This document shows positions 3,338 to 64,000 of a stretch of 64,000 bases of DNA, piece by piece. The notes beneath the pieces are model-generated. The model worked only from the letters and a program-made list of their open reading frames with translations. It searched no databases and was not told where the DNA came from. The first letter of the stretch is position 1. Every line of letters begins with the position of its first letter. The position numbers were made by a program, and so were the translations under genes. The stretch spans positions 27,367 to 91,366 of the IMG/VR virus record IMGVR_UViG_3300017991_000083; one strand, given 5' to 3'. This DNA comes from a virus.

Positions 3338-3413
3338 GGGAGCCCCCTTCCCGTGTGAGAGAGACCGTTCCTACTCGATATACGCCAATCGGGCGCGTTT
3401 TGGGCGCTACTTT

Positions 3414-16490: not shown

Positions 16491-16518
16491 CCGGGCCAGG
16501 TCGACACCCCTGGCCCGG
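16491..16518 (-). terminator. GC-rich hairpin after the tail tube gene (terminator or mRNA stabiliser)
   Basis: CCGGGCCAGG-N8-CCTGGCCCGG; no U-tract. Confidence 0.4.
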
Positions 16519-16532
16519 CCCTATCCCCAGGC

Positions 16533-16985
16533 CTAGCTCTCGTCTCCGAGTTCGATCGTGCCGACGCTGTTGCTGCTGTCGGCCGTGGCCTCGAAGTCGA
16601 AGTTGGGAATGACGTGCGAGTCTCGTGCGAACGGGAACCTCAGGTTCGTCGCCCGGCACTCGTTGAGCGTGATGGTGAACGTCACGCTGTCGGTTGTCAT
16701 GGTGAACTCGAGCTGCCAGGTGTCGGGATACGACGTGTTGGAGAGCGCCACCGACGTCCCGGTTCTCGTGCCACCAGTGAGTCGCTCGACTCCCTTCGCG
16801 GTCAGATTCGCGAACTCGGCGCTGCCGGTGATCGACCCGGTATGCGTCCGAATGTCCTTCGGGAAGAGACCCGCACCGCTGTAGAGCTTCGCGACGTCGA
16901 AGCTGAAGTCGAGACTGAAGTTCTGCAGATGGCCCAGGATCTCCCCGTCCTGGCGCATTGTGCCAAGACCGAACTGGATAGCCAC
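16533..16985 (-). CDS. major tail tube protein
   Basis: 150-aa Thr/Ser-rich beta protein; strong GGAGGGGGTG SD; position. Confidence 0.8.
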   Translation of the reverse strand: MAIQFGLGTMRQDGEILGHLQNFSLDFSFDVAKLYSGAGLFPKDIRTHTGSITGSAEFANLTAKGVERLTGGTRTGTSVALSNTSYPDTWQLEFTMTTDSVTFTITLNECRATNLRFPFARDSHVIPNFDFEATADSSNSVGTIELGDES

Positions 16986-46762: not shown

Positions 46763-47404
46763 TCAGGCGTCCCTGAGCTCCTTGATGTCCCTCTTGAGTA
46801 CGCACACCTTCTCCTGGAGCAGCGCCGCCTGCGCCGAAGCGCTACGAGCCTGCTCAACCGCAACCTCGAGATCGCTCTCGAGGCGCTGGTTCTCGCCCTG
46901 TGCCAGTTCCAGGGCCCGGTCCGCGTCCTTGAGCTCGCCCTGGAGCTCGTGGATCTTCGCGAGCTGCCGGACGCCCGTCGACGGCAGCATCTGGAGCGCG
47001 TTCGGCTCCGGCGCCTGCCAGCGGTGCATGTGACAGATCGCCCGGAGCCTGGCCCTGATCTCCTCGGTCGCCTTCAGGTAGCCGCGGGCGTAGTAGAGCC
47101 TGTTCAGGCAATCGCGCCTGGTTGTGCCGAACTTGCCCGGCCGCGCCTTCTGCTGCTTCGTCTCGATGATGTACTCGATGGTCTCAGTGACCTGGGTCTT
47201 GAGTGAGTGCTTGAGCCGGATGACGGCCCGTCGCGCCTCGAACCACTTGTTCACCCCACGCGCCATCAGGACACGCTGCACGTCCTGGGGCGAGATCCCG
47301 AGCTTGGCGAGGTCGTCTACGATGAGACGGACTCTGTTCTGTGCAAACGACGGGATGTTCGCAGGTGTCACCAGCAGTGGATCCAGCGGCTTGTCTTTCT
47401 TCAT
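46763..47404 (-). CDS. hypothetical protein with a C-terminal coiled coil
   Basis: GAGGGGG SD. Confidence 0.65.
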   Translation of the reverse strand: MKKDKPLDPLLVTPANIPSFAQNRVRLIVDDLAKLGISPQDVQRVLMARGVNKWFEARRAVIRLKHSLKTQVTETIEYIIETKQQKARPGKFGTTRRDCLNRLYYARGYLKATEEIRARLRAICHMHRWQAPEPNALQMLPSTGVRQLAKIHELQGELKDADRALELAQGENQRLESDLEVAVEQARSASAQAALLQEKVCVLKRDIKELRDA

Positions 47405-54657: not shown

Positions 54658-55299
54658 CTCTCTCCCCTCGAAAGATCGTCCTCGGCGTAGGGGGCACTCG
54701 GGCCATCAGGAATTACCCCCTGTATCCACCCAACAGCAGGCCCCGCTCCGCCCTCGCCCCCCCCCACGCCTCGGACCCGTAACACGCCCTCATCCCATAT
54801 ACGCCAATCCCCCGCCCCCTGGGACAAGGATTCTCGACCATCGTTGCGGCCCGCCGCCCTATGTGACAGTTTTCCTCTCACTTCCCCCCGCTTACAGCAA
54901 CTGTCAGACGATTCCTGGGCCAGCCCTCAGGAACTGAGACTTTTTCGATTTTTCCCTGGTGGCGGTGAAGGGGATAATGCACAGGATGGTGGATTTTCTT
55001 CGTGGTGGTGGAAGTCGTTGCAGGGCAACAACTTAGGGGCGCGACCTTGACAACTTGCGAGGGGTCGCTCAGGAATCCCCTAACCGTCGACGGGGCGCCC
55101 GGTTGCGGCGCTCGAGGGCGCCGGCGCCGTCGGCCGGCCCTGGCCCTGGCCCGGGGCCCTGGGGCAATCCCCAGGGGGCCGCGGGTCGGCCTAACTTGCG
55201 ACCGGGCCGGCGTTTGGGCCGGGTCCAGGGGGCCCAGGTTTACAGAATAGCTATTATGCGACGCTGGCCGGCCTAACTGACGGCGGGGCAATCACTTAG

Positions 55300-56950
55300 C
55301 GCCTGACGTCAGGGCGCCCGGGGGGCCGGGCCGGGGCCAGGGCCGGGGCGATCCGGGGGGCCGGCCCCAGGGGAGACGGGCGACGGCCGGGCCCCGAATC
55401 CGGCCCCGGCGCCGGCCCTGGCCCTGGACCCGACCGGCGACACGGGGGCGTCAGGGGGTCCCCGGGTGCGCCCGGGGTCCAGGGGGGGCGCTCGAGGGGC
55501 GCCGGGGGTGCGGGTGCGGGGGTCCAGGGGGCGGGCCTGGGGGTCGGTTGCCGGCCTGGGGGGGGCGGCCAGGGTCGGGGGCGTTCGTCGATCCTGGGGC
55601 GATCCTGGGGCCCTGGCGGGCGCCCTGGTCGGGGGTCCGGCCCTGGCCCTGGGGCGGGCGCTCGAGCTCTCCGGGCGCCGGCCCTGGCCCTGGCGCTCGA
55701 GCTCTCCGGGCGGGGTCCAGGGGGCGGGGGGGGCGCTCGAGCTCTCCCCCTGGGGCGTCGGGTGCGGGGGAGCTCTCGAGGGGGCGGGCCAGGGCGGGGG
55801 TGCTCAGGGTCGGGGGCGGGGGCGTTCGTGTCTCCTGGGGGGCGTACGGGGGCCGGTTTGGGTGCGGTCGGGGCGTTTGGGCGTTTTCGGGGGCCTTTTG
55901 GGGTCGCCGGCGGGCGTCAGGGGTCGGGCGGTCGGCGCTCCTGGGGGCGCTCTCGAGCTCTCCGGGCGCCGGCCTGGGGCCTGGGGGGGCGATCCTGGGG
56001 GCGTCAGGGGGCGGGGGCGCTCTCCGGGTGCGGCGTCAGGGCGTCAGGGTCGCCCCTGGGCGGGCCCTGGGGCCTGGGGCGGCCAGGGGTGCGGCCTGGG
56101 GGCGTTCGTGTCTCCTGGGGCGATCCTGGGGCCCTGGCGGGCGCCCTGGTCGGGGGTCCGGCCCTGGCCCTGGGGCGGGCGCTCGAGCTCTCCGGGCGCC
56201 GGCCTGGGGGCGCTCTCGAGGGTCGGCGGGGGAGCTCTCCGGGCGGGGGTCCAGGGGGGGCGCTCGAGCTCTCCCCGGGGGGCGCTCTCGAGGGGGCGCC
56301 CTTGCGCCCTGGGTGCAGGGGGCGCCCTGGGGGCCGCGGGCGTTTTCGGCGGTTTCGGGGGATCCCCGGCGCCGTTTTCGGCGGTTTCGGCGTTTGGGCG
56401 GTTTCGTTTGGGCGGGGCGTTTTCGGGGGGGCCTATTCGATCGCGGCCGGGGGCCGCGGGCGCCCTCGAGGGGGGGGCGCCGGCGCCGGCCGGGGCCGGT
56501 GTCGGCGGGTCGGGTCCGGGGGCCCTCGAGGGCCGGCCCTGGGGCGCTCTCGAGCTCTCCGGCCGCGGCCAGGTCGGGGCGCTCTCGAGGGGGCGGCCCT
56601 GGGGCGATCCTGGGGCCGTCAGGGCGCCCCGGCGGCCTGGGGCGGCCAGGGGTCCGGCCTGGGGGCGTTCGTCGATCCTGGGGCGATCCTGGGCCCCTGG
56701 GGGGCGCTCCTGGGGGCGCTCTCGAGCTCTCCCCAGGGGCGCTCTCGAGGGGGCGGCCTTGCGGCATATCCGCGGCGATCCTGGGCGATATGCGGCGCCG
56801 GTACGGGGAGCGCCCCCCGCGGCCCTGGGACCTGGGCGCGGGGGGCGGGTGCGGTGTTGCGGGGATCGGGGCGGGCGGGCGGGGGCGCCCTGGGCGCCGG
56901 CGGGGTCCTCACGCCGGCGGGCGCCCCCTGGGGGCGGTCCCGGCGGGCGT
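55300..56950. repeat. G-rich non-coding repeat tract
   Basis: 92-bp exact duplication (55592-55683 = 56113-56204); many CTCGAGCTCTCC and GGGGCGTTCGT motifs. Confidence 0.8.
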
Positions 56951-56951
56951 G

Positions 56952-57815
56952 CTACGGTCCCGCAATCGTCGCCAGGCCGGCGGCGCTCTCGAGCGCTCCG
57001 GCCACGGGGCCCAAAGCCACGGCGGCGGCGGCCAGTACGGCGGCGGCCAGGGCGGCCCCTGCTATGACGGCCAGGCGGACGGCGCCCAGGTCGGGCGGCG
57101 GGCCGGCCGGCCCGCGGGGGGCCGGCGCGGGGTCCGATCCGCGCCAGGTTGCAGGCGCGGGCCCCAGGGCGCCGGCCGCGATCGCGTCACGGGCGGCGGT
57201 TGCGAGTGTTCCGGCGCCGGCCAGGCCGGCCCGGATAACGCCGACCAGGGCCAGGGCCAGGGCCCCGGCCAGGGCCAGGGCCCCGGCCAGGGCCAGGGCG
57301 CCGGCCTGGTCGGCTGTCTCTGTTAGCTTGTCGCCGGCGGCCTCGAGGCGGGCGCGGCGGCCGCGGGCGACCGTCAGGCGCCAAACGGGCGGCCAGGGGC
57401 GCGGGCCCCCGACGTCGCCCCCGGCGACCTGGCGCCAGGCCCAGGCGACGGCCTGGGCGCCCTGGCGGGCGTGGTAGGCCGTCGACCTGACGGCCCCCCA
57501 GGCCCTCGAGCGCTCGAGCGCCCAGGGGCCCAGGGGCCGGGTTGCGATCGCCCAGGCGATCGGGGCCAGGTCGGCCAGGTGGCGGGCCCGGCGGCGGGTC
57601 CAGGTGCGGCCGGCGCGGCCGGCGCGGGCGATCCTGGCGCCCAGGGTGCGGGCGGCCGCGGCCTGGGCGGCGTCATAGTCGGCCAGGGCGTCGGCCAGGG
57701 CGGCGGCGGCGTCATCGGCGCCAAACGGGGCGTGTGATCCCCGGGCGGCAACCTCGGCGGCCTCGAGTACGGCGGCCAGGGCGCGGCGGGTGCGGGTGCG
57801 GGCGGTCTCTTTCAC
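56952..57815 (-). CDS. Ala-rich hypothetical protein with a hydrophobic C-half
   Basis: Starts at the repeated leader's SD (AAGGGGGAGACA GTG); C-half is low complexity. Confidence 0.5.
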   Translation of the reverse strand: MKETARTRTRRALAAVLEAAEVAARGSHAPFGADDAAAALADALADYDAAQAAAARTLGARIARAGRAGRTWTRRRARHLADLAPIAWAIATRPLGPWALERSRAWGAVRSTAYHARQGAQAVAWAWRQVAGGDVGGPRPWPPVWRLTVARGRRARLEAAGDKLTETADQAGALALAGALALAGALALALVGVIRAGLAGAGTLATAARDAIAAGALGPAPATWRGSDPAPAPRGPAGPPPDLGAVRLAVIAGAALAAAVLAAAAVALGPVAGALESAAGLATIAGP

Positions 57816-57870
57816 TGTCTCCCCCTTGCGGGGGGGCCGGCCAGGAGCCGGCCCCGGTTGCGGTTGACTA
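57816..57870 (-). repeat. repeated intergenic hairpin/SD element, copy 1
   Basis: TAG-TCAACCGCAACC-GGGGCCGGC(TCCTG)GCCGGCCCC-CCCGCAAGGGGGAGACA-GTG. Confidence 0.85.
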
Positions 57871-58680
57871 GCTGTTGGCGCTCTCGGCGAAACGGGCCGC
57901 GACGGTCACGGGCTCCCCCTCGAGGCGGGCGACCAGGGGCGCCAGGCGCTCGAGCACGGCCACCAGGGCGGCGCGGGCCCTGACCTCGAGCTCGGCGCGG
58001 GCCTGGTCGGCCTCGGGGCCCTCGGCGTGGATCACGTCCAGGGCGCCGGCGTCGGTCGGGCCCTCGGGGTCGAAACGGCGCCCAAACTCGGCGCCGGCCT
58101 TGTCGACGTCGCCGGCGGTATCAATGGCGGCCTGGTATAGCACGGCCTCGACGGCGCGGGCGCCGGCCTGGGCCTGGCCGACCCGGCCGCGGTTGACGTC
58201 GGCCAGGTGCGCCAGGCGCTCGGCGTCGGTGTCATCCCGGGCCAGGTCTCCGGCCTCGAGGGCGGCGCCGGCCAGGACGTCGACGGCCCAGGCCTGGCCC
58301 AGGGCCCGGCCCAGGGCGTCGGCCAGGGCCTCGAGGCCCCGGGCGGCGGCGTCGATCTTCGCCCAGGCCAGGCCGGCGGCGTACGTCGCCCCGGCGGCGC
58401 CGGCCAGGGCCTGGCGGCGGTACGATCGGCCCGCGGCGATCACGGCCGCGGCGGTGTCCTCACGGCGGGCGCCGGCGGTCCGGGCCGCGGCCTCGAGCTC
58501 GAGGGCGGCGGCCTCGGCGTCGGCGTCGCCGGCCAGGCGGTCGGCCTCGAGGCGGGCCAGGTCGGCCGCGGTGCGGGCGGCCTCGGCGACGTTGCGGGCG
58601 GCGCGGTTGCAGGTCGCCAGGTCGCGGGCGTCGGCCGGGGCGACCAGGGCGGGCGGGGCGGTTTCGGTTGCGTTTCTCAC
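57868..58680 (-). CDS. Ala-rich helical hypothetical protein
   Basis: Bounded exactly by two repeat elements. Confidence 0.7.
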   Translation of the reverse strand: MRNATETAPPALVAPADARDLATCNRAARNVAEAARTAADLARLEADRLAGDADAEAAALELEAAARTAGARREDTAAAVIAAGRSYRRQALAGAAGATYAAGLAWAKIDAAARGLEALADALGRALGQAWAVDVLAGAALEAGDLARDDTDAERLAHLADVNRGRVGQAQAGARAVEAVLYQAAIDTAGDVDKAGAEFGRRFDPEGPTDAGALDVIHAEGPEADQARAELEVRARAALVAVLERLAPLVARLEGEPVTVAARFAESANS

Positions 58681-58737
58681 TGTCTCCCCCTTGCGGGGGG
58701 CCGGCGCCCAGGGCGCCGGCCCGGTTGCGGTTGTCTA
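58681..58737 (-). repeat. repeated intergenic hairpin/SD element, copy 2
   Basis: TAG-ACAACCGCAACC-GGGCCGGCGCC(CTG)GGCGCCGGCCC-CCCGCAAGGGGGAGACA-GTG. Confidence 0.85.
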
Positions 58738-59481
58738 CAGGTTGCCGGCCGGCGTGTCGCCGGCCAGGGTGTCGGCCAGGGCCTGGGCGCAGCCGGCGAG
58801 CTCGGCGGCGGCGGCGTTGTCCAGGCGGCGGGCGATCGCGTCGGCGTCGCCGGCGGCCCCCCTGGCGTCGGCCAGGGTGCGACGGGCGGCCCGCATATCG
58901 CGGGCGGCCTTGTCGGCGGCCTCGGCGGCCTTGCGGGCCCGGCGGGTCGCCAGGTCCAGGGCGCCGGCGGCCCTCGACGCCCGGCGGGCGGCCTTGCGGG
59001 CCAGGCGGTCGGCGGTCCGGCGCTCCCGGGCCAGGCGGGCGCGGTCGGCGACGTACTCCGGCCGCGGATCACAGCCGGCCGCGGTCCGCTGATCCTCGAG
59101 GGCCTGGGCGCTCTCGAGGCGGGCGACGGCCTGGGCGGCGGCCGTCAGGGCGGCGCCGGCCTGGGCCTCGGCCTCGGCCTCGACCTGGCGGGCCTCATCT
59201 CTCAGGCGCTCGACCAGGGCCGCGGCGCCGGCCAGGACCTCGGGCGCCGGGTTGCGGTAGGCCTCGAGGCGGACCGTTGCCAGGTGCCAGGAATGGCCCC
59301 CGCTGTGCATGTGCGGCGCCAGGCGGACCCGGGCGCGGTCGGTTTCCTCGTCGGCGTAGGCCTGGACCTCGACGCGACCCGACCAGCCGGCGGCGTGCGT
59401 GCGTACCCCCGACCCGGCCGACCCTAGACGGGTGGCGGCGGTCCGGCCCTGGCCCTCTGTCATCCCCTGGAAGCGTGCCAT
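58735..59481 (-). CDS. hypothetical protein (N-terminal beta domain plus Ala-rich helix)
   Basis: MARFQG...ATRLGS...GW motif; TAATG coupling. Confidence 0.7.
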   Translation of the reverse strand: MARFQGMTEGQGRTAATRLGSAGSGVRTHAAGWSGRVEVQAYADEETDRARVRLAPHMHSGGHSWHLATVRLEAYRNPAPEVLAGAAALVERLRDEARQVEAEAEAQAGAALTAAAQAVARLESAQALEDQRTAAGCDPRPEYVADRARLARERRTADRLARKAARRASRAAGALDLATRRARKAAEAADKAARDMRAARRTLADARGAAGDADAIARRLDNAAAAELAGCAQALADTLAGDTPAGNL

Positions 59482-59813
59482 TAGTGGCCCCCTCTCTGGC
59501 CGGCGACGTCGCCGGCGGTTGTGGTGTCGGTTGCGATCACGGCGGCCGCGAATCCGGCCGCGGTCAGGCGCCGGGCGCCGACCCTGGCGGCGTCGGCGTC
59601 GGCGTCGGCCTGGTCGGCCAGGCGGGCGGCCCGGCGGAATGCGGCCGCGGCCCGGCGGGCCTGGCGCTCGGCGGCCTGGTCGCCCGGCCGGCGGGCGGCC
59701 GCGGCGTCGGCCGCGGCGGCCAGGCGGGCGGCCCTTGCGACCTGGCGGGCGGCCCGGTCGGCGGCGGCCTCGAGCTCGGCGGCGGCGTCTCTGATTGCGT
59801 CGGCGGTTGTCAT
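59481..59813 (-). CDS. Ala-rich hypothetical protein
   Basis: Starts at the repeat-element SD. Confidence 0.65.
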   Translation of the reverse strand: MTTADAIRDAAAELEAAADRAARQVARAARLAAAADAAAARRPGDQAAERQARRAAAAFRRAARLADQADADADAARVGARRLTAAGFAAAVIATDTTTAGDVAGQRGGH

Positions 59814-59867
59814 TGTCTCCCCCTTGCGGGGGGCCGGCCAGGGGCCGGCCCCGGTTGCGGTTGACTA
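59814..59867 (-). repeat. repeated intergenic hairpin/SD element, copy 3
   Basis: TAG-TCAACCGCAACC-GGGGCCGGCC(CCT)GGCCGGCCCC-CCGCAAGGGGGAGACA-ATG. Confidence 0.85.
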
Positions 59868-60224
59868 GCTGTCGGCGGATGCGTCGCCGACGGTCCCGGC
59901 CAGGTGCTCGGCCTCGAGCTCGGCGTCGGCCTGGGCGTCGGCGATCCGGGCCAGGGCCTGGCCGGCGCGGAGAGTGTGCAGGCGCTCATCTCCGGCGGCC
60001 CTGATCCGGCCGGCGATCGCGGCGACGGTCTCGGCGATCCGGTCGGCGTCGCCGGCCTGGATCGCGTCGGCGACGGTGTGCAGGTCATCCGGGCGGACGG
60101 CGACGCCCCCGGCGGGCGCGGCCTTGCGGGCGGCGGCCAGGTCGGCCAGGTCGGCGGCGGTCTCACTGGCGGCGGCGGCCTGATCGGCGGCGGCGGCCTT
60201 GCGGTCGGCGGTGCTCTTGCTCAC
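59865..60224 (-). CDS. Ala-rich hypothetical protein
   Basis: CCCGCAAGGGGGAGACA GTG start; first gene after the promoter. Confidence 0.65.
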   Translation of the reverse strand: MSKSTADRKAAAADQAAAASETAADLADLAAARKAAPAGGVAVRPDDLHTVADAIQAGDADRIAETVAAIAGRIRAAGDERLHTLRAGQALARIADAQADAELEAEHLAGTVGDASADS

Positions 60225-60332
60225 TGTCTCCCCCTTGCGGGTGCTCCCCTCGGCGGCCCCGGCCGGATTGCCGGCGGCGGTCTCGGGGGGCGGTTTGTGT
60301 CCTGCTGTTGGGCGGTTTGTCGTCATGGGGGC

Positions 60333-60362
60333 ATGGTAGCACGCCGGCGCCCAGGCCGTCAA
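60333..60362 (-). promoter_or_regulatory. sigma70-type promoter
   Basis: TTGACG-N18(ending TGC)-TACCAT with upstream AAAATAAT. Confidence 0.75.
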
Positions 60363-60664
60363 GGATTATTTTCTCCCCCGTGTCGATTGTCGGCCGGCCC
60401 CCCTCGAGGCCGGGCCGGCGCCCCCTCGGGGGGCGGCGTATTCCGGCGGATTGCGGGCGCACGTTGCAAGCGGCGTGCCAAACGGTCGGCGACGCCCAGG
60501 GGCCGGGCCTCGAGGGCGGGCCCAGGGGGCGCTGGCGGGGGAGCTCGGCGCCGGCCTCGAGGGCGCCCCCTGGGGGCCGCGGGCGGCCTGGGGCGGCCCG
60601 GTGTCCAGGCCGGGGGCGTTCGTCGATCCTGGGGCGATCCCGGGGCCCTGGGCGACGCCCTGGC

Positions 60665-60801
60665 GCCGGCCCTGGCCCTGGCGGGGGAGCTCGAGCGCCG
60701 GCCGGCCCTGGCCCTGGCGGGGGAGCTCGAGCGCCGGCCGGCCCTGGCCCTGGCGGGGGAGCTCGAGCGCCGGCCGGCCCTGGCCCTGGCGGGGGAGCTC
60801 G
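60665..60801. repeat. 36-bp tandem repeat (3 exact copies plus 1 partial)
   Basis: GCCGGCCCTGGCCCTGGCGGGGGAGCTCGAGCGCCG. Confidence 0.9.
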
Positions 60802-60835
60802 GCGCCGGCCTCGAGGGCGCCGGGGCGGTTCGGCC

Positions 60836-60865
60836 TTGACTCGAGGCCGGCCGGCGTGCTACAAT
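60836..60865 (+). promoter_or_regulatory. sigma70-type promoter facing array A
   Basis: TTGACT-N18(ending TGC)-TACAAT. Confidence 0.7.
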
Positions 60866-60996
60866 CGCGGTTCGGGTCGCCCCTGGGCGGCCCTGACGCC
60901 GGCCCCCGCGGCCCCCGACCTGGGCGGCCCCCGGCCGGCCCCCTCGAGGCGCCCCCGGCGCCCCCCCGGCCCCCTGGCCCCCCGGCCATATCACGC

Positions 60997-61204
60997 CCCC
61001 TAGCTTGCGAGCGATATGCCGACCCCTAGCTTGCGAGCGATATGCCGACCCCTAGCTTGCGAGCGATATGCCGACCCCTAGCTTGCGAGCGATCCCGACC
61101 CCCTTAGCTTGCGAGCGATCTCGAGACCGCGACCTTGCGAGCGATCTCGAGACCGCGACCTTGCGAGCGATCTCGAGACCGCGACCTTGCGAGCGATCCC
61201 GACC
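60997..61204 (+). repeat. array A: 8 x CTTGCGAGCGAT with an exact 26-bp period
   Basis: Cores at 61004, 61030, 61056, 61082, 61108, 61134, 61160, 61186. Confidence 0.92.
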
Positions 61205-61296
61205 AGGCCCCAAACGGTCGGCGCCCCGGCCTCGACAAGGGGAGAGACCAGGGCGCCCGGGCCCCCGTTTGTGCGGGGGCGTTTTCGTTGTGTTTT

Positions 61297-62097
61297 CTAG
61301 GTCGCCGGGGGCGCCTCAAGGGCCCCGGCGACCCGGGCCGCGGCCTTGAGCTCGGCGTCGCGGGCGGCCTCGGCGTCGTCATAGTCGACAATCCGAACCT
61401 GGACCCCCGGCGTCGCGTCGCCGACGTGGGCGACGCCCCCCAGGACCTCGACGGTCACAAACGGGGCGCCGTCGATCTCCAGGCCGGCCAGGGCGATCTC
61501 GAGCTCTCCGGCGACGTACTCCGCGGCCTGGCGCCTCGGCTCGATCTCCGGGAACTCGCCCCCCTCAACGTCGGCGGCGGCCGCGGCCAGGAGCTCGACC
61601 TCGGCTCTCAGGGCCCGGATTGCGAAACGGGCCCGGTCGGCCAGGGCCTCGGCGCCGGCGCGGGCGACCTCGAGGGCCTGGGCGTACTCCTCGACCTCGC
61701 GGGCGTGTCGGTACTCCGTCATAACTTCCTGATCCTCGGCCTCGAGCGAATAGTACGCCCTCAGGTCGGCGGCCCAGGTGTCCAGGACCTCGGCGTCGCC
61801 CCGGCCCCCGTGTACCTGGGCGCCCGGCGACACGTACTCAGCCAGGGCGTCGATCACGTACTGCACGCCGTCAGGCGTCAGGGAAGCGCCCAGGTACTCC
61901 CCACATTCTGCACAGTGCAGGGGCGAATCCGTTTCGCCCCCGCCGTCAGGATACGGGCCGGCCGGCCAGGTGTCGGTGTCGGCGTCATCACGCGACGGGC
62001 GCCGGGCCGGGGCCCTGCCGGCGGCCTCGAGCTCGGCCTGGATCGCGGCGGCGCAAGTTTCACAGTAGATGTCGGCCTGGTAGATGTAGACGTCCAT
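61297..62097 (-). CDS. zinc-binding hypothetical phage protein
   Basis: YQADIYCETC...DSPLHCAECG; C-terminal VEVLGGVA...VRIVDYD; AAGGGGGG SD. Confidence 0.75.
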   Translation of the reverse strand: MDVYIYQADIYCETCAAAIQAELEAAGRAPARRPSRDDADTDTWPAGPYPDGGGETDSPLHCAECGEYLGASLTPDGVQYVIDALAEYVSPGAQVHGGRGDAEVLDTWAADLRAYYSLEAEDQEVMTEYRHAREVEEYAQALEVARAGAEALADRARFAIRALRAEVELLAAAAADVEGGEFPEIEPRRQAAEYVAGELEIALAGLEIDGAPFVTVEVLGGVAHVGDATPGVQVRIVDYDDAEAARDAELKAAARVAGALEAPPAT

Positions 62098-62177
62098 GTT
62101 GCCCCCCTTGTCGGTTGCGGCCCCCTCGAGGGCCAGGCGGCCCCCGGGCGACGGCGCCCGGGGGCCTGATCGGCGTG

Positions 62178-63386
62178 CTACTTCTCGAGTCTCAGGGGCA
62201 TCAGGATCGACCTGACGCCCTGGGCGCCCTGGTCGCCGGCGGCCTCGATCACGGCCGCGGCGACGGGCTTGGTCCATCCGACCCTGATCCGCTCCCCCTC
62301 GGGGAGATGCACCAGGGCGGCGGCCAGGTAGTCGCCATTGTATCCGGCGGTGAACTCGGCGGGCCCGCCGTCGACGTCGATGTACTCCCAGGCCTCGCCG
62401 ACGTCGGGCGTCGACACGGCGACCTTGCAGCGCCCCTTGCGGACCTCGAGACGAACCTGGTTCGTCAGGGTGTCGGCCAGGGGGGCGACGCGATCCAGGG
62501 CGCCGGCCAGGGCGGCCCGGTCGAACGTCGCCCAGGTCGCCGGCGTCGGGATCACTTGACGGTAGTTTGGGAATGGCCCCTCGAGCGCCCGGGCGACGAT
62601 AGTGACCAGGCCGATCTTGAACCCGACCCGGCCGGCCCCGTCGGCCTCGACGTATCCGAACCTGACAGGCGCCGGGGGCAGTTTCGCCTTGCGGGCGGCC
62701 TTCAGGTCGGCCGCGGCCTCGGCGGCGGCCAGGGCCAGGGCCTTTGGCGGCACTATGACGGCCTTGTCGGCCAGGCCGTTGGTGCGGGCGGGGAGCTCGG
62801 CGGAGACCAGGCGGTGGCCGTCGGTCGCCGTCGCCAGGACCTGGCCGTCGCCGACCTCGACAAACACACCGTTTAGACTCGGGCGCGTTTCGTCGGTCGA
62901 CGTGCAGAACCTGACGCGATTGTCCAGGGCGACCAGGGCCTCGGCGTCGATCTCGAGGCCCGGCGCCGGCGCCGGCCGGATCGACGGGAACTCGGGCGCC
63001 GGGAATCCCAGGACCTTGACGGTTGTCGGGCCCAGGGTGAGCTCGGCGCTCTCCGGGTCGCCGGGCTCGGTCTCCCCCTCGGCGGGCGCCGGGGTCTCGG
63101 CGTATATGGTCACGGCCTCGATCCCCTTTGCGCCCTTCAGGACCTTCAGGAGACGGTCGACGCCCAGGACCACGGCCCCGGCCTCGAGCTCGGCGCCGGC
63201 CTCGGCGGCGATCCGCCGGGTCACGGTCACGTCTAGGTCGGTCGCCGTCGCCAGGAGCTCTCCGGCCTCGACGTCGACGGTCATGTACGCCCCCGACAGT
63301 ACGGGGAGCGTCGCCTTGTTCGATGCTACTTTCTTCAGGCCCCTCAGGGCGCTCTCCAGGTCGGCACGTGCTACGGTTGCCCTCAT
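62178..63386 (-). CDS. dnaN: DNA polymerase III beta sliding clamp homologue
   Basis: TLPVLSG, ATDLD, STDETRPSLNGV, ATDGHRL, VIVPPK, EGPFPNYRQVIP and ILMPLR. Confidence 0.92.
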   Translation of the reverse strand: MRATVARADLESALRGLKKVASNKATLPVLSGAYMTVDVEAGELLATATDLDVTVTRRIAAEAGAELEAGAVVLGVDRLLKVLKGAKGIEAVTIYAETPAPAEGETEPGDPESAELTLGPTTVKVLGFPAPEFPSIRPAPAPGLEIDAEALVALDNRVRFCTSTDETRPSLNGVFVEVGDGQVLATATDGHRLVSAELPARTNGLADKAVIVPPKALALAAAEAAADLKAARKAKLPPAPVRFGYVEADGAGRVGFKIGLVTIVARALEGPFPNYRQVIPTPATWATFDRAALAGALDRVAPLADTLTNQVRLEVRKGRCKVAVSTPDVGEAWEYIDVDGGPAEFTAGYNGDYLAAALVHLPEGERIRVGWTKPVAAAVIEAAGDQGAQGVRSILMPLRLEK

Positions 63387-63460
63387 ATCTTGCCCCCTTG
63401 TCTCGGCGGCCTCGGCGGCCGCGGCCCTTGTCTGATGTCGGCCGGATTGCCGACGTTTAG

Positions 63461-63490
63461 AGTCTAGCATACATGCCCCCATGCTGTCAA
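63461..63490 (-). promoter_or_regulatory. sigma70-type promoter of the dnaN operon
   Basis: TTGACA-N18(ending TGC)-TAGACT with upstream AAAAA. Confidence 0.8.
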
Positions 63491-63504
63491 GCGCCTTTTT
63501 GTGC

Positions 63505-63534
63505 TTGCGTCAGGGTCGGCCGGCGTGCTAGACT
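63505..63534 (+). promoter_or_regulatory. divergent sigma70-type promoter facing array B
   Basis: TTGCGT-N18(ending GGCCGGCGTGC)-TAGACT. Confidence 0.55.
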
Positions 63535-63592
63535 CGAGGCCTCGAGCGATCCCCAGGGCCCGGCCCTGGGGAGCTCGACGTCGGCCCCGGCC

Positions 63593-63716
63593 GGCGCCCA
63601 GGGGGAGCTCGAGGGCCCCGACCTGGCGCCGGCCTCGAGGGGGCGCCCAGGGGGAGCTCGAGGGCCCCGACCTGGCGCCGGCCTCGAGGGGGCGCCCAGG
63701 GGGAGCTCGAGGGCCC
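63593..63716. repeat. 49-bp tandem repeat (about 2.5 copies)
   Basis: GGCGCCCAGGGGGAGCTCGAGGGCCCCGACCTGGCGCCGGCCTCGAGGG at 63593, 63642 and partially at 63691. Confidence 0.9.
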
Positions 63717-63737
63717 GGGACCGGCGGCGATATGTCG

Positions 63738-63919
63738 CCCCCTAGCTTGCGAGCGATCCCGACCTCGAGCTTGCGAGCGATCCCGACCTCGAGCTTGCGA
63801 GCGATCCCGACCTCGAGCTTGCGAGCGATCCCGACCAACACAAGGGGCCCCAGGTCTATAGACCTGGGGCCCCTTAGCTTGCGAGCGATATGTCGCCCCC
63901 TAGCTTGCGAGCGATCCCG
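63738..63919 (+). repeat. array B: 6 x CTTGCGAGCGAT interrupted by a palindrome
   Basis: Cores at 63746, 63770, 63794, 63818, 63878, 63904. Confidence 0.92.
63842..63875. repeat. perfect 34-bp palindrome
   Basis: AAGGGGCCCCAGGTCTA|TAGACCTGGGGCCCCTT. Confidence 0.92.
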
Positions 63920-64000
63920 TCAACCGGCGGCGGCGGCCGACGTGGGCTCTCGGTAGCCCAGGGGGACCCGGTTGCGAATCTGCCCCTTCAGTCGGTCGGC

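Follow-up and report, generated by a model that had tools for sequence, protein, structure and literature searches.

In the 64,000-nucleotide stretch of viral DNA analysed here (the window, which forms the final 64 kb of the complete 91,366-bp IMG/VR virus record IMGVR_UViG_3300017991_000083, whose termini share a 123-bp repeat), genes of one minus-strand operon are joined by a repeated junction element that runs from the stop codon of one gene to the start codon of the next. Each full copy is composed of a stop codon, a fixed 12-mer, a strong GC hairpin and a fixed ribosome-binding site, and this one genome carries three full copies (termed E1 to E3) and one partial copy (E4). Our preferred and still tentative interpretation is that the element is a copied intercistronic junction of a polycistronic early messenger RNA (mRNA), combining a hairpin that would protect or process the 3' end of one message with a standard ribosome-binding site for the next.

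The 17-mer CCCGCAAGGGGGAGACA was found in four exact copies on the minus strand (positions 57816-57832, 58681-58697, 59814-59830 and 60225-60241), with none expected from 100 shuffles. The block TAG-N-CAACCGCAACCGGG occurs in three exact copies on the same strand, and TAGNCAACCGCAACCGGG is present in three exact copies at 57853-57870, 58720-58737 and 59850-59867, again with none expected. Neither the 17-mer nor the TAG-12-mer block has a copy elsewhere in the 91,366-bp genome; the 12-mer core does recur at 46855 as its exact reverse complement, within a coding sequence and probably by chance. A preliminary description of this DNA had proposed three full copies and one partial copy, the full ones filling the intergenic gaps exactly, and this proved correct, the stop-to-start gaps of 51 nt (g119/g110), 54 nt (g248/g270) and 52 nt (g270/g287) being wholly occupied by the element. 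When a covariance model of the element was run against the complete 91,366-bp genome, the matches were E1 to E3 and, weakly, E4. The first gene of the operon bears the 3' half alone, and the two halves of the element therefore behave as separate modules.

Between the two fixed blocks each full copy forms a perfect stem, of 10 bp with a 3-nt loop in E1, 11 bp with a 3-nt loop in E2 and 9 bp with a 5-nt loop in E3 (10 bp if a U.G pair is counted), in agreement with the length of 9-11 bp first reported for these hairpins. The predicted stem energies are -23.6, -26.1 and -21.9 kcal/mol, respectively, and all three stems begin 12 nt past the stop codon. Perfect stems of at least 9 bp number 14 genome-wide, three of them belonging to E1 to E3 and one to the junction between the sliding clamp gene and g266. 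By a second measure, 5 of the 94 gene ends in the genome are followed by a perfect stem of at least 8 bp within 70 nt of the stop codon; the GC-rich island that contains the operon (see below) holds four of these five, all of which begin 11-12 nt past the stop. The clamp/g266 junction had been described as a degenerate copy lying ahead of position 62097, and it is real, with a 12-bp hairpin, CCGCAACCG and finally ACAAGGGGGG-CAAC-ATG. The sole strong post-stop hairpin outside the island (16491-16518, minus strand) has a 10-bp stem that starts 14 nt past the stop codon of a 150-aa gene (16985..16533) in the tail-gene region, about 1 kb upstream of the tape-measure gene. Coordinates of the copies and of the surrounding features are given in Table 1.

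Table 1. Copies of the junction element and neighbouring features, in window coordinates.
Feature	Coordinates	Strand	Remarks
E1: TAG, T-CAACCGCAACCG, hairpin 59830-59852, CCCGCAAGGGGGAGACA, ATG	59811..59867	minus	covariance-model score 93.7 bits
E2: TAG, A-CAACCGCAACCG, hairpin 58698-58722, CCCGCAAGGGGGAGACA, GTG	58678..58737	minus	covariance-model score 74 bits
E3: TAG, T-CAACCGCAACCG, hairpin 57833-57855, CCCGCAAGGGGGAGACA, GTG	57813..57870	minus	covariance-model score 89.2 bits
E4: partial copy, ribosome-binding half CCCGCAAGGGGGAGACA only, abutting GTG 60224 of g119	60225..60241	minus	covariance-model score 18.3 bits
Degenerate relative at the clamp/g266 junction: TAG, 12-bp hairpin 62139-62166, second hairpin, CCGCAACCG, ACAAGGGGGG, CAAC, ATG	62098..62177	minus	hairpin starts 11 nt past stop
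Operon promoter, sigma-70-like: TTGACG, 18 nt, TACCAT, TG preceding the -10	60333..60362	minus	predicted transcript start near 60326
g119, Ala-rich open reading frame, 119 aa from GTG 60224	59865..60224	minus	first operon gene; GC3 0.94
g110, Ala/Arg-rich open reading frame	59481..59813	minus	TAATG overlap with g248, no element between
g248	58735..59481	minus	N-terminal beta domain and three long helices
g270, Ala-rich ORFan	57868..58680	minus	self-match only among 5.8 billion protein clusters
g287, Ala-rich, hydrophobic C-terminal stretches	56952..57815	minus	last operon gene
Long GC hairpin region, distinct from the junction hairpins	56885..56951	minus	directly 3' of g287 stop; -55.1 kcal/mol, z -2.3
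DnaN sliding clamp, three-domain	63389..62178	minus	promoter upstream at 63490-63461
g266	62097..61297	minus	followed by about 1 kb of repeat-rich non-coding DNA before the second promoter

The core of the 17-mer is the generic Shine-Dalgarno sequence of this phage, since AAGGGGG with ATG or GTG 4-9 nt later precedes at least 16 open reading frames genome-wide, as compared to one for AAGGAGG. The only parts of the 17-mer that are specific to the operon are CCCGC ahead of AAGGGGG and AGACA after it. A special role for the TAG with which the element begins was rejected because 49 of 92 genes in the whole genome end in TAG, more than in any other stop codon; such a preference is unusual in a GC-rich genome. 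Over the 18 nt (six codons) that follow each of the four start codons, the sequence is A-rich with a GC content of 50-67%, as compared to about 80% in the genes. A drop of GC in the first codons is the usual signature of true start sites, and the A-rich codons found here fit real, selected starts.

The genes that the element joins are mutually unrelated: no significant pairwise similarity was detected among the five operon proteins, which indicates that the junction, and not the genes, is the conserved unit, and the idea that the element is a spacer between tandem paralogues was rejected on the same grounds. None of the five proteins has a match in Pfam, and their alanine content (29-41%) is that expected at 80% GC. 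The reading frames themselves are supported by the GC content of codon positions (GC3 of 0.90-0.95, above GC1, itself above GC2), a pattern by which 55300-56950 and 60250-61300 are non-coding. It is certain that g248 is a genuine gene, its first 75 or so residues matching about 100 proteins of phrog_5927, mostly small stand-alone proteins. Its AlphaFold model (pLDDT 83) comprises a confident six-stranded beta domain followed by three long Ala-rich helices; no informative fold match was obtained for the model and no convincing solved-structure match for the beta domain. The two closest homologues of g248 lie on contigs of 1.7 kb (P0002, Logan) and 1.06 kb (P0003, ENA). An Atlas search with g287 gave no match. 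Three further observations concern the ends of these genes. Within the last codons of g248 (58747-58765, minus strand), 10 nt 5' of the stop, lies an 8-bp perfect hairpin, GGCCGGCG-ACA-CGCCGGCC, whose arms are similar to those of the E2 hairpin that follows. The operon ends at the long hairpin region after g287, in which neither the CAACCGCAACC motif nor a U tract is present. At the other end, an in-frame AUG (60324-60326, minus strand) is located 7 nt past the -10 hexamer TACCAT, at the predicted transcript start; a 153-aa form of g119 translated from a leaderless mRNA is possible, in which case the conserved ribosome-binding site would lie inside the reading frame.

The operon is located in a 9-kb GC island of a siphovirus-like phage in which tape-measure, portal, head-morphogenesis and helicase genes were recognised, and whose minus strand carries 89 of 92 genes (rough open reading frame filter, whole genome). 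The GC content reaches 72-85% in window positions 55000-64000, as compared to 60-66% across the remaining genome; overall values are 80% for the island and 62% for the phage. Two operons, both on the minus strand, lie in the island together with about 3 kb of non-coding DNA rich in repeats. It also holds four sigma-70-like promoters, the sites returned by a scan of 54800-64000 in which 0.1 were expected. An assembly chimera is improbable, because the island genes recur in independent assemblies, on contigs of approximately 91.2 and 91.4 kb (JGI, ENA and Logan), and because the island shares the unusual AAGGGGG Shine-Dalgarno sequence of the phage. No tRNA genes were found in the 64-kb window.

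The island contains further repeats. A plus-strand unit without genes (60836-61290) starts with a TTGACT-18-TACAAT promoter at 60836-60865, continues with eight CTTGCGAGCGAT units of 26-bp period (60997-61205) and ends with a canonical hairpin and U-tract terminator at 61261-61290; a further CTTGCGAGCGAT array is located at 63740-63925 and two additional units near genome position 3500. The sequence GGCGTGCTA has five copies in the genome, every one in the island (window 56946, 60345, 60853, 62172 and 63522). Three of them form the spacer/-10 portion of promoters. The remaining two, at 56946 and 62172 on the plus strand, share bases with the stop codons of g287 and of the clamp gene, where they point antisense into the two operons and have no good -35. 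Finally, GATTGGCGTATAT occurs three times on the minus strand (window 54797-54809 and 3378-3390, genome 18934-18946), twice 30-45 nt 5' of a Shine-Dalgarno sequence and ATG and once precisely on the low-GC border of the island. This sequence may represent a second, phage-specific promoter class.

According to the interpretation that we prefer, host RNA polymerase would transcribe the operon as a single early mRNA from the promoter at 60362-60333. The gene-end module opens with the stop codon, continues with a 12-mer that is A/C-rich and unstructured, and ends with the very stable GC hairpin starting 12 nt past the stop. This hairpin would most likely act on the RNA, by blocking 3'-to-5' exonucleases or as a site of processing or pausing that divides the transcript into stable segments. 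Intercistronic hairpins play such roles in other operons and in the early transcript of phage T7. The footprint of a terminating ribosome reaches about 12 nt past the stop codon, and as the hairpin starts approximately where this footprint ends, translation would not need to melt it and it could persist on translated mRNA. The gene-start module, with the consensus Shine-Dalgarno sequence AAGGGGG of the phage, fixed 5-nt spacer AGACA, ATG or GTG and A-rich codons, would supply each gene with the same strong ribosome-binding site; its G run and the C run ahead of it could form a stem closed by a GCAA tetraloop. The whole junction would have been physically copied as unrelated ORFan genes joined the operon. 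The occurrence of the 3' half alone in E4 and of a different hairpin after g287 are consistent with such a design of separate gene-end and gene-start modules. The proposal that the element is a portable module thus stands as far as a real, orientation-specific, two-part junction with separable halves is concerned.

Comparison of the copies bears on how they arose. The E1 and E3 hairpins differ by a single base, and the two copies show about three differences in 70 positions overall. Their similarity continues upstream of the stop codon, where 12 of 13 nt are identical, and this identity extending into the coding ends argues that the junction was physically copied; E2 is hardly similar there, so that what was previously noticed in the last codons applies to E1 and E3 and only weakly to E2. 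The E2 hairpin departs from those of E1 and E3 by length changes, or a register shift, on both arms of a GGCC/GGCGCC palindrome. In a column-wise alignment of the three copies, four E2 cells are unpaired and one C-G pair has become U.G in E3, a C-to-U substitution that retains the pair on the sense RNA only. The preliminary description had stated that the hairpin sequence varies while pairing is kept; a perfect stem is indeed present in each copy, and the variation comes from one divergent copy, E2, with no pair changed on both sides.

Several results weigh against our interpretation. Firstly, covariation is nil, the alignment of three copies containing no double-sided pair change. Secondly, the stems are perfect palindromes composed of words common in the island, so that palindrome correction at the DNA level or plain recency could maintain them; the perfect hairpin of each copy is equally expected from DNA-level palindrome maintenance or from recent copying. 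Thirdly, the CCCCC-GCAA-GGGGG hairpin (predicted at -9.9 kcal/mol, and competing with the base of the main hairpin for the same C run) does not single out these ribosome-binding sites. The predicted cost of freeing the G run is 6-8 kcal/mol, and the predicted unpaired probability of the Shine-Dalgarno sequence is 0.31-0.52 at the elements, no lower than at other phage genes (0.27-0.84). Accessibility thus falls within the range of the phage, and special masking of the Shine-Dalgarno sequence by the GNRA hairpin, together with any regulatory role of this hairpin, is unsupported. Fourthly, phage T7 possesses five RNase III processing signals and the ideal RNase III substrate measures about 22 bp, roughly two helical turns (PMC3867540), as compared to which the stems of 9-11 perfect bp found here are too short for a classical site. 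Lastly, the collections searched yielded no relative, be it of the phage, of its operon or of the element.

These searches covered both DNA and protein. DNA searches of the phage collection gave no relatives, and in tblastn searches all portal matches had at most about 24% identity, cultured phages thus all being distant, and g248 had no match. The exact element pattern gave no match in viral contigs; scans of the same contigs seeded with g248, its homologue P0002, the clamp or the portal found nothing, and a g248 alignment scanned against metagenome and genome contigs gave no match. A loosened pattern gave at least 118 matches in metagenome contigs, none with a stem longer than 7 bp or with the rest of the element, and these were discarded as chance occurrences in coding sequence (RKGE) or as an unrelated CCCTCCCC-GCAA-GGGGAGGG hairpin. 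The junction element matches no known RNA family in Rfam. Many unrelated metagenome contigs share an arrangement of CCGCAACC, a C-rich tract and a CCCTCCCC-GCAA-GGGGGAGGG hairpin, with no Rfam match there (loci L011, L019, L030, L033, L078, L090, L094, L099, L111 and L114); they may belong to a widespread type of small repeat or terminator that has no relation to the element of the phage.

The alternatives considered below overlap with the copied-junction reading and are not mutually exclusive with it. One that we regard as unlikely is that the elements serve as linkers for recombination, analogous, apart from the missing promoter, to the promoter-early stem-loop (PeSL) cassettes of T4-type phages. 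The main selected role of the elements would then lie at the DNA level: as direct repeats of 55-70 bp they would let homologous recombination delete, insert or swap genes while rebuilding a working junction. The direct repeats do border unrelated genes, at least one of them an ORFan, the identity of E1 and E3 into the coding ends speaks for physical copying, and PeSLs likewise span stop to Shine-Dalgarno/ATG, adjoin ORFans and recombine into mini-circles (PMC2839356, PMC4122927). However, there are three full copies only, in a single operon, the promoter that defines PeSLs is missing, no relatives were found in which insertions or deletions could show, and any repeated junction would recombine as a side effect, selected or not. 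Furthermore, the genome encodes no tyrosine or serine recombinase: PF00589 had no match in the complete 91-kb genome while 14 of 14 control genomes were positive, and PF00239 had none in it either.

It is also unlikely, in our estimation, that the repeats are a functionless trace, an ordinary junction of hairpin and ribosome-binding site that was duplicated with each added gene and has not yet diverged. Such an origin would account for the near-identity of E1 and E3 into their coding ends, for the nil covariation and for hairpin arms made of the common words of the island, and both the Shine-Dalgarno sequence and the TAG are generic for the phage. Neutral decay is less easily reconciled with the distribution of changes between E2 and E1, all of which fall in the hairpin of about 25 nt and none in the 29 nt of flanking blocks, an uneven pattern (as an estimate from small numbers), or with the perfect stem kept in each copy despite length changes on both arms. 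Moreover, the flanking genes are dissimilar, so the junction has either outlived much divergence or moved on its own.

We give still less credence to the possibility that the invariant 12-mer and 17-mer are a docking site for a phage or host protein or RNA controlling translation or transcription elongation, on the model of the start-associated sequences (SAS) of Cluster K mycobacteriophages, of a translational repressor or of a nut-like boxA/boxB antitermination site in which the GCAA hairpin would be boxB. A 5-bp stem with a GNRA loop presumably resembles the boxB of phage lambda, both blocks are fully identical across copies while the intervening hairpin differs, and the operon encodes small Arg/Ala-rich proteins, a richness that is expected at 80% GC. 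SAS/ESAS are also conserved Shine-Dalgarno-containing repeats with upstream inverted repeats at the starts of non-structural genes (PMC3203893). No candidate binder was identified, the five operon proteins having no Pfam match, and the 17-mer is partly just the general Shine-Dalgarno sequence. As to a trans-acting RNA, pairing of RNAs from the plus-strand CTTGCGAGCGAT array with the ribosome-binding site, in an antisense or sponge role, is not supported because, in duplex energy, the ribosome-binding windows fall at the 83rd-95th percentile and are weaker partners than most other 30-nt stretches of the operon. The least credible proposal, that the element is an active cassette boundary in a promoter-less gene-cassette system within one early operon, at which recombination or template switching at hairpins inserts, deletes and reorders ORFan early genes in register, with a three-hairpin fold that might join stop and start for ribosome passage, finds no direct support in the tests reported here.

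Among known systems, simple signals could be set aside first. An intrinsic terminator was rejected, since a terminator scan returned no site at E1 to E3 and the stems are followed by CCCGCAAGGGGG with no U tract; as a canonical terminator exists elsewhere in the island (61261-61290), the junction hairpins are not simple terminators. A promoter within the element was rejected likewise, none being found by the scan and no A/T-rich -10 being present. Integron attC sites are imperfect palindromes with extrahelical bases and a GTTRRRY core, recombined by the integrase, a tyrosine recombinase. They have in common with the present junctions promoter-less genes in one orientation and hairpin-forming repeats just past stop codons, but the stems are perfect here, without extrahelical bases, the element carries the ribosome-binding site of the next gene, and the plus-strand sequences GTTGCGG and GTTGACT do not match GTTRRRY. 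The perfect stems, the missing core and the missing recombinases rule out an integron-like system. A lambda-type nut site combines a linear boxA with boxB, a short hairpin with a GNRA-like loop to which an arginine-rich antiterminator binds. The sole presumed likeness to it is the 5-bp GCAA hairpin, and neither a protein like N nor a consensus boxA was identified.

The RNase III signals of phage T7 are related hairpins between early cistrons of the mRNA made by the host polymerase, and the cleaved hairpin remains at the 3' end of the upstream message. The hairpins described here similarly lie between same-strand cistrons, with a promoter upstream (60362-60333) and none between the genes. The T7 signals are long irregular helices with internal loops.

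A second comparison concerns the SAS of Cluster K mycobacteriophages, a 13-bp asymmetric sequence (GGGATAGGAGCCC) that contains a Shine-Dalgarno sequence, lies 3-7 bp before the starts of non-structural genes in one orientation and is suspected of a role in translation (Pope et al. 2011, PMC3203893). A subset of SAS is preceded by extended SAS (ESAS), an inverted repeat with imperfect 17-bp arms of conserved sequence and a variable spacer, in which the changes do not support an RNA hairpin (PMC3203893). Both systems therefore present a fixed Shine-Dalgarno-containing block at gene starts with an inverted repeat upstream. They differ in that the block is CCCGCAAGGGGGAGACA here and abuts the start codon, that the arms are perfect, 9-11 bp long, separated by loops of 3-5 nt and different in sequence among copies, and that the element also takes in the upstream stop codon and a fixed 12-mer.

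The architecturally closest known system is that of the PeSL cassettes of T4-type phages, which span the interval from the upstream stop to the downstream Shine-Dalgarno/ATG and carry GGGG...CCCC stem-loops beside ORFans (Arbiol et al. 2010, PMC2839356; Comeau et al. 2014, PMC4122927). They sit among early genes in a plastic region, where a linker role in homologous recombination has been proposed and partly shown, including mini-circles. Their defining features are a strong sigma-70 promoter, preceded by an AT-rich region, and a stem-loop that serves as terminator (PMC2839356, PMC4122927). The present element also extends from stop to Shine-Dalgarno sequence and start, with a stable stem-loop (9-11 bp, -22 to -26 kcal/mol). 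In contrast to PeSLs, it has no promoter (0 of the 4 scanned sites lie inside E1 to E3) and no A/T-rich -10, no U tract and a GC-only sequence, and it is confined to three full copies and one partial copy in one operon of a siphovirus-like phage. PeSLs occur in many copies and flank ORFans preferentially, in hyperplastic regions; of the genes joined here, g270 is an ORFan and g248 has homologues. As the sigma-70 promoter is missing, the element is not a PeSL. If functional, it would pack the end of one gene and the start of the next into a self-contained part of about 55 nt, within a message of extremely high GC content, and would be a simple test case for the relation between hairpins placed just past the ribosome footprint and the stability of operon mRNA. 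It would then add a promoter-less type to the few repeated gene-boundary modules of phages, namely PeSL, SAS/ESAS and the T7 RNase III sites, which are thought to govern the expression and shuffling of orphan early genes.

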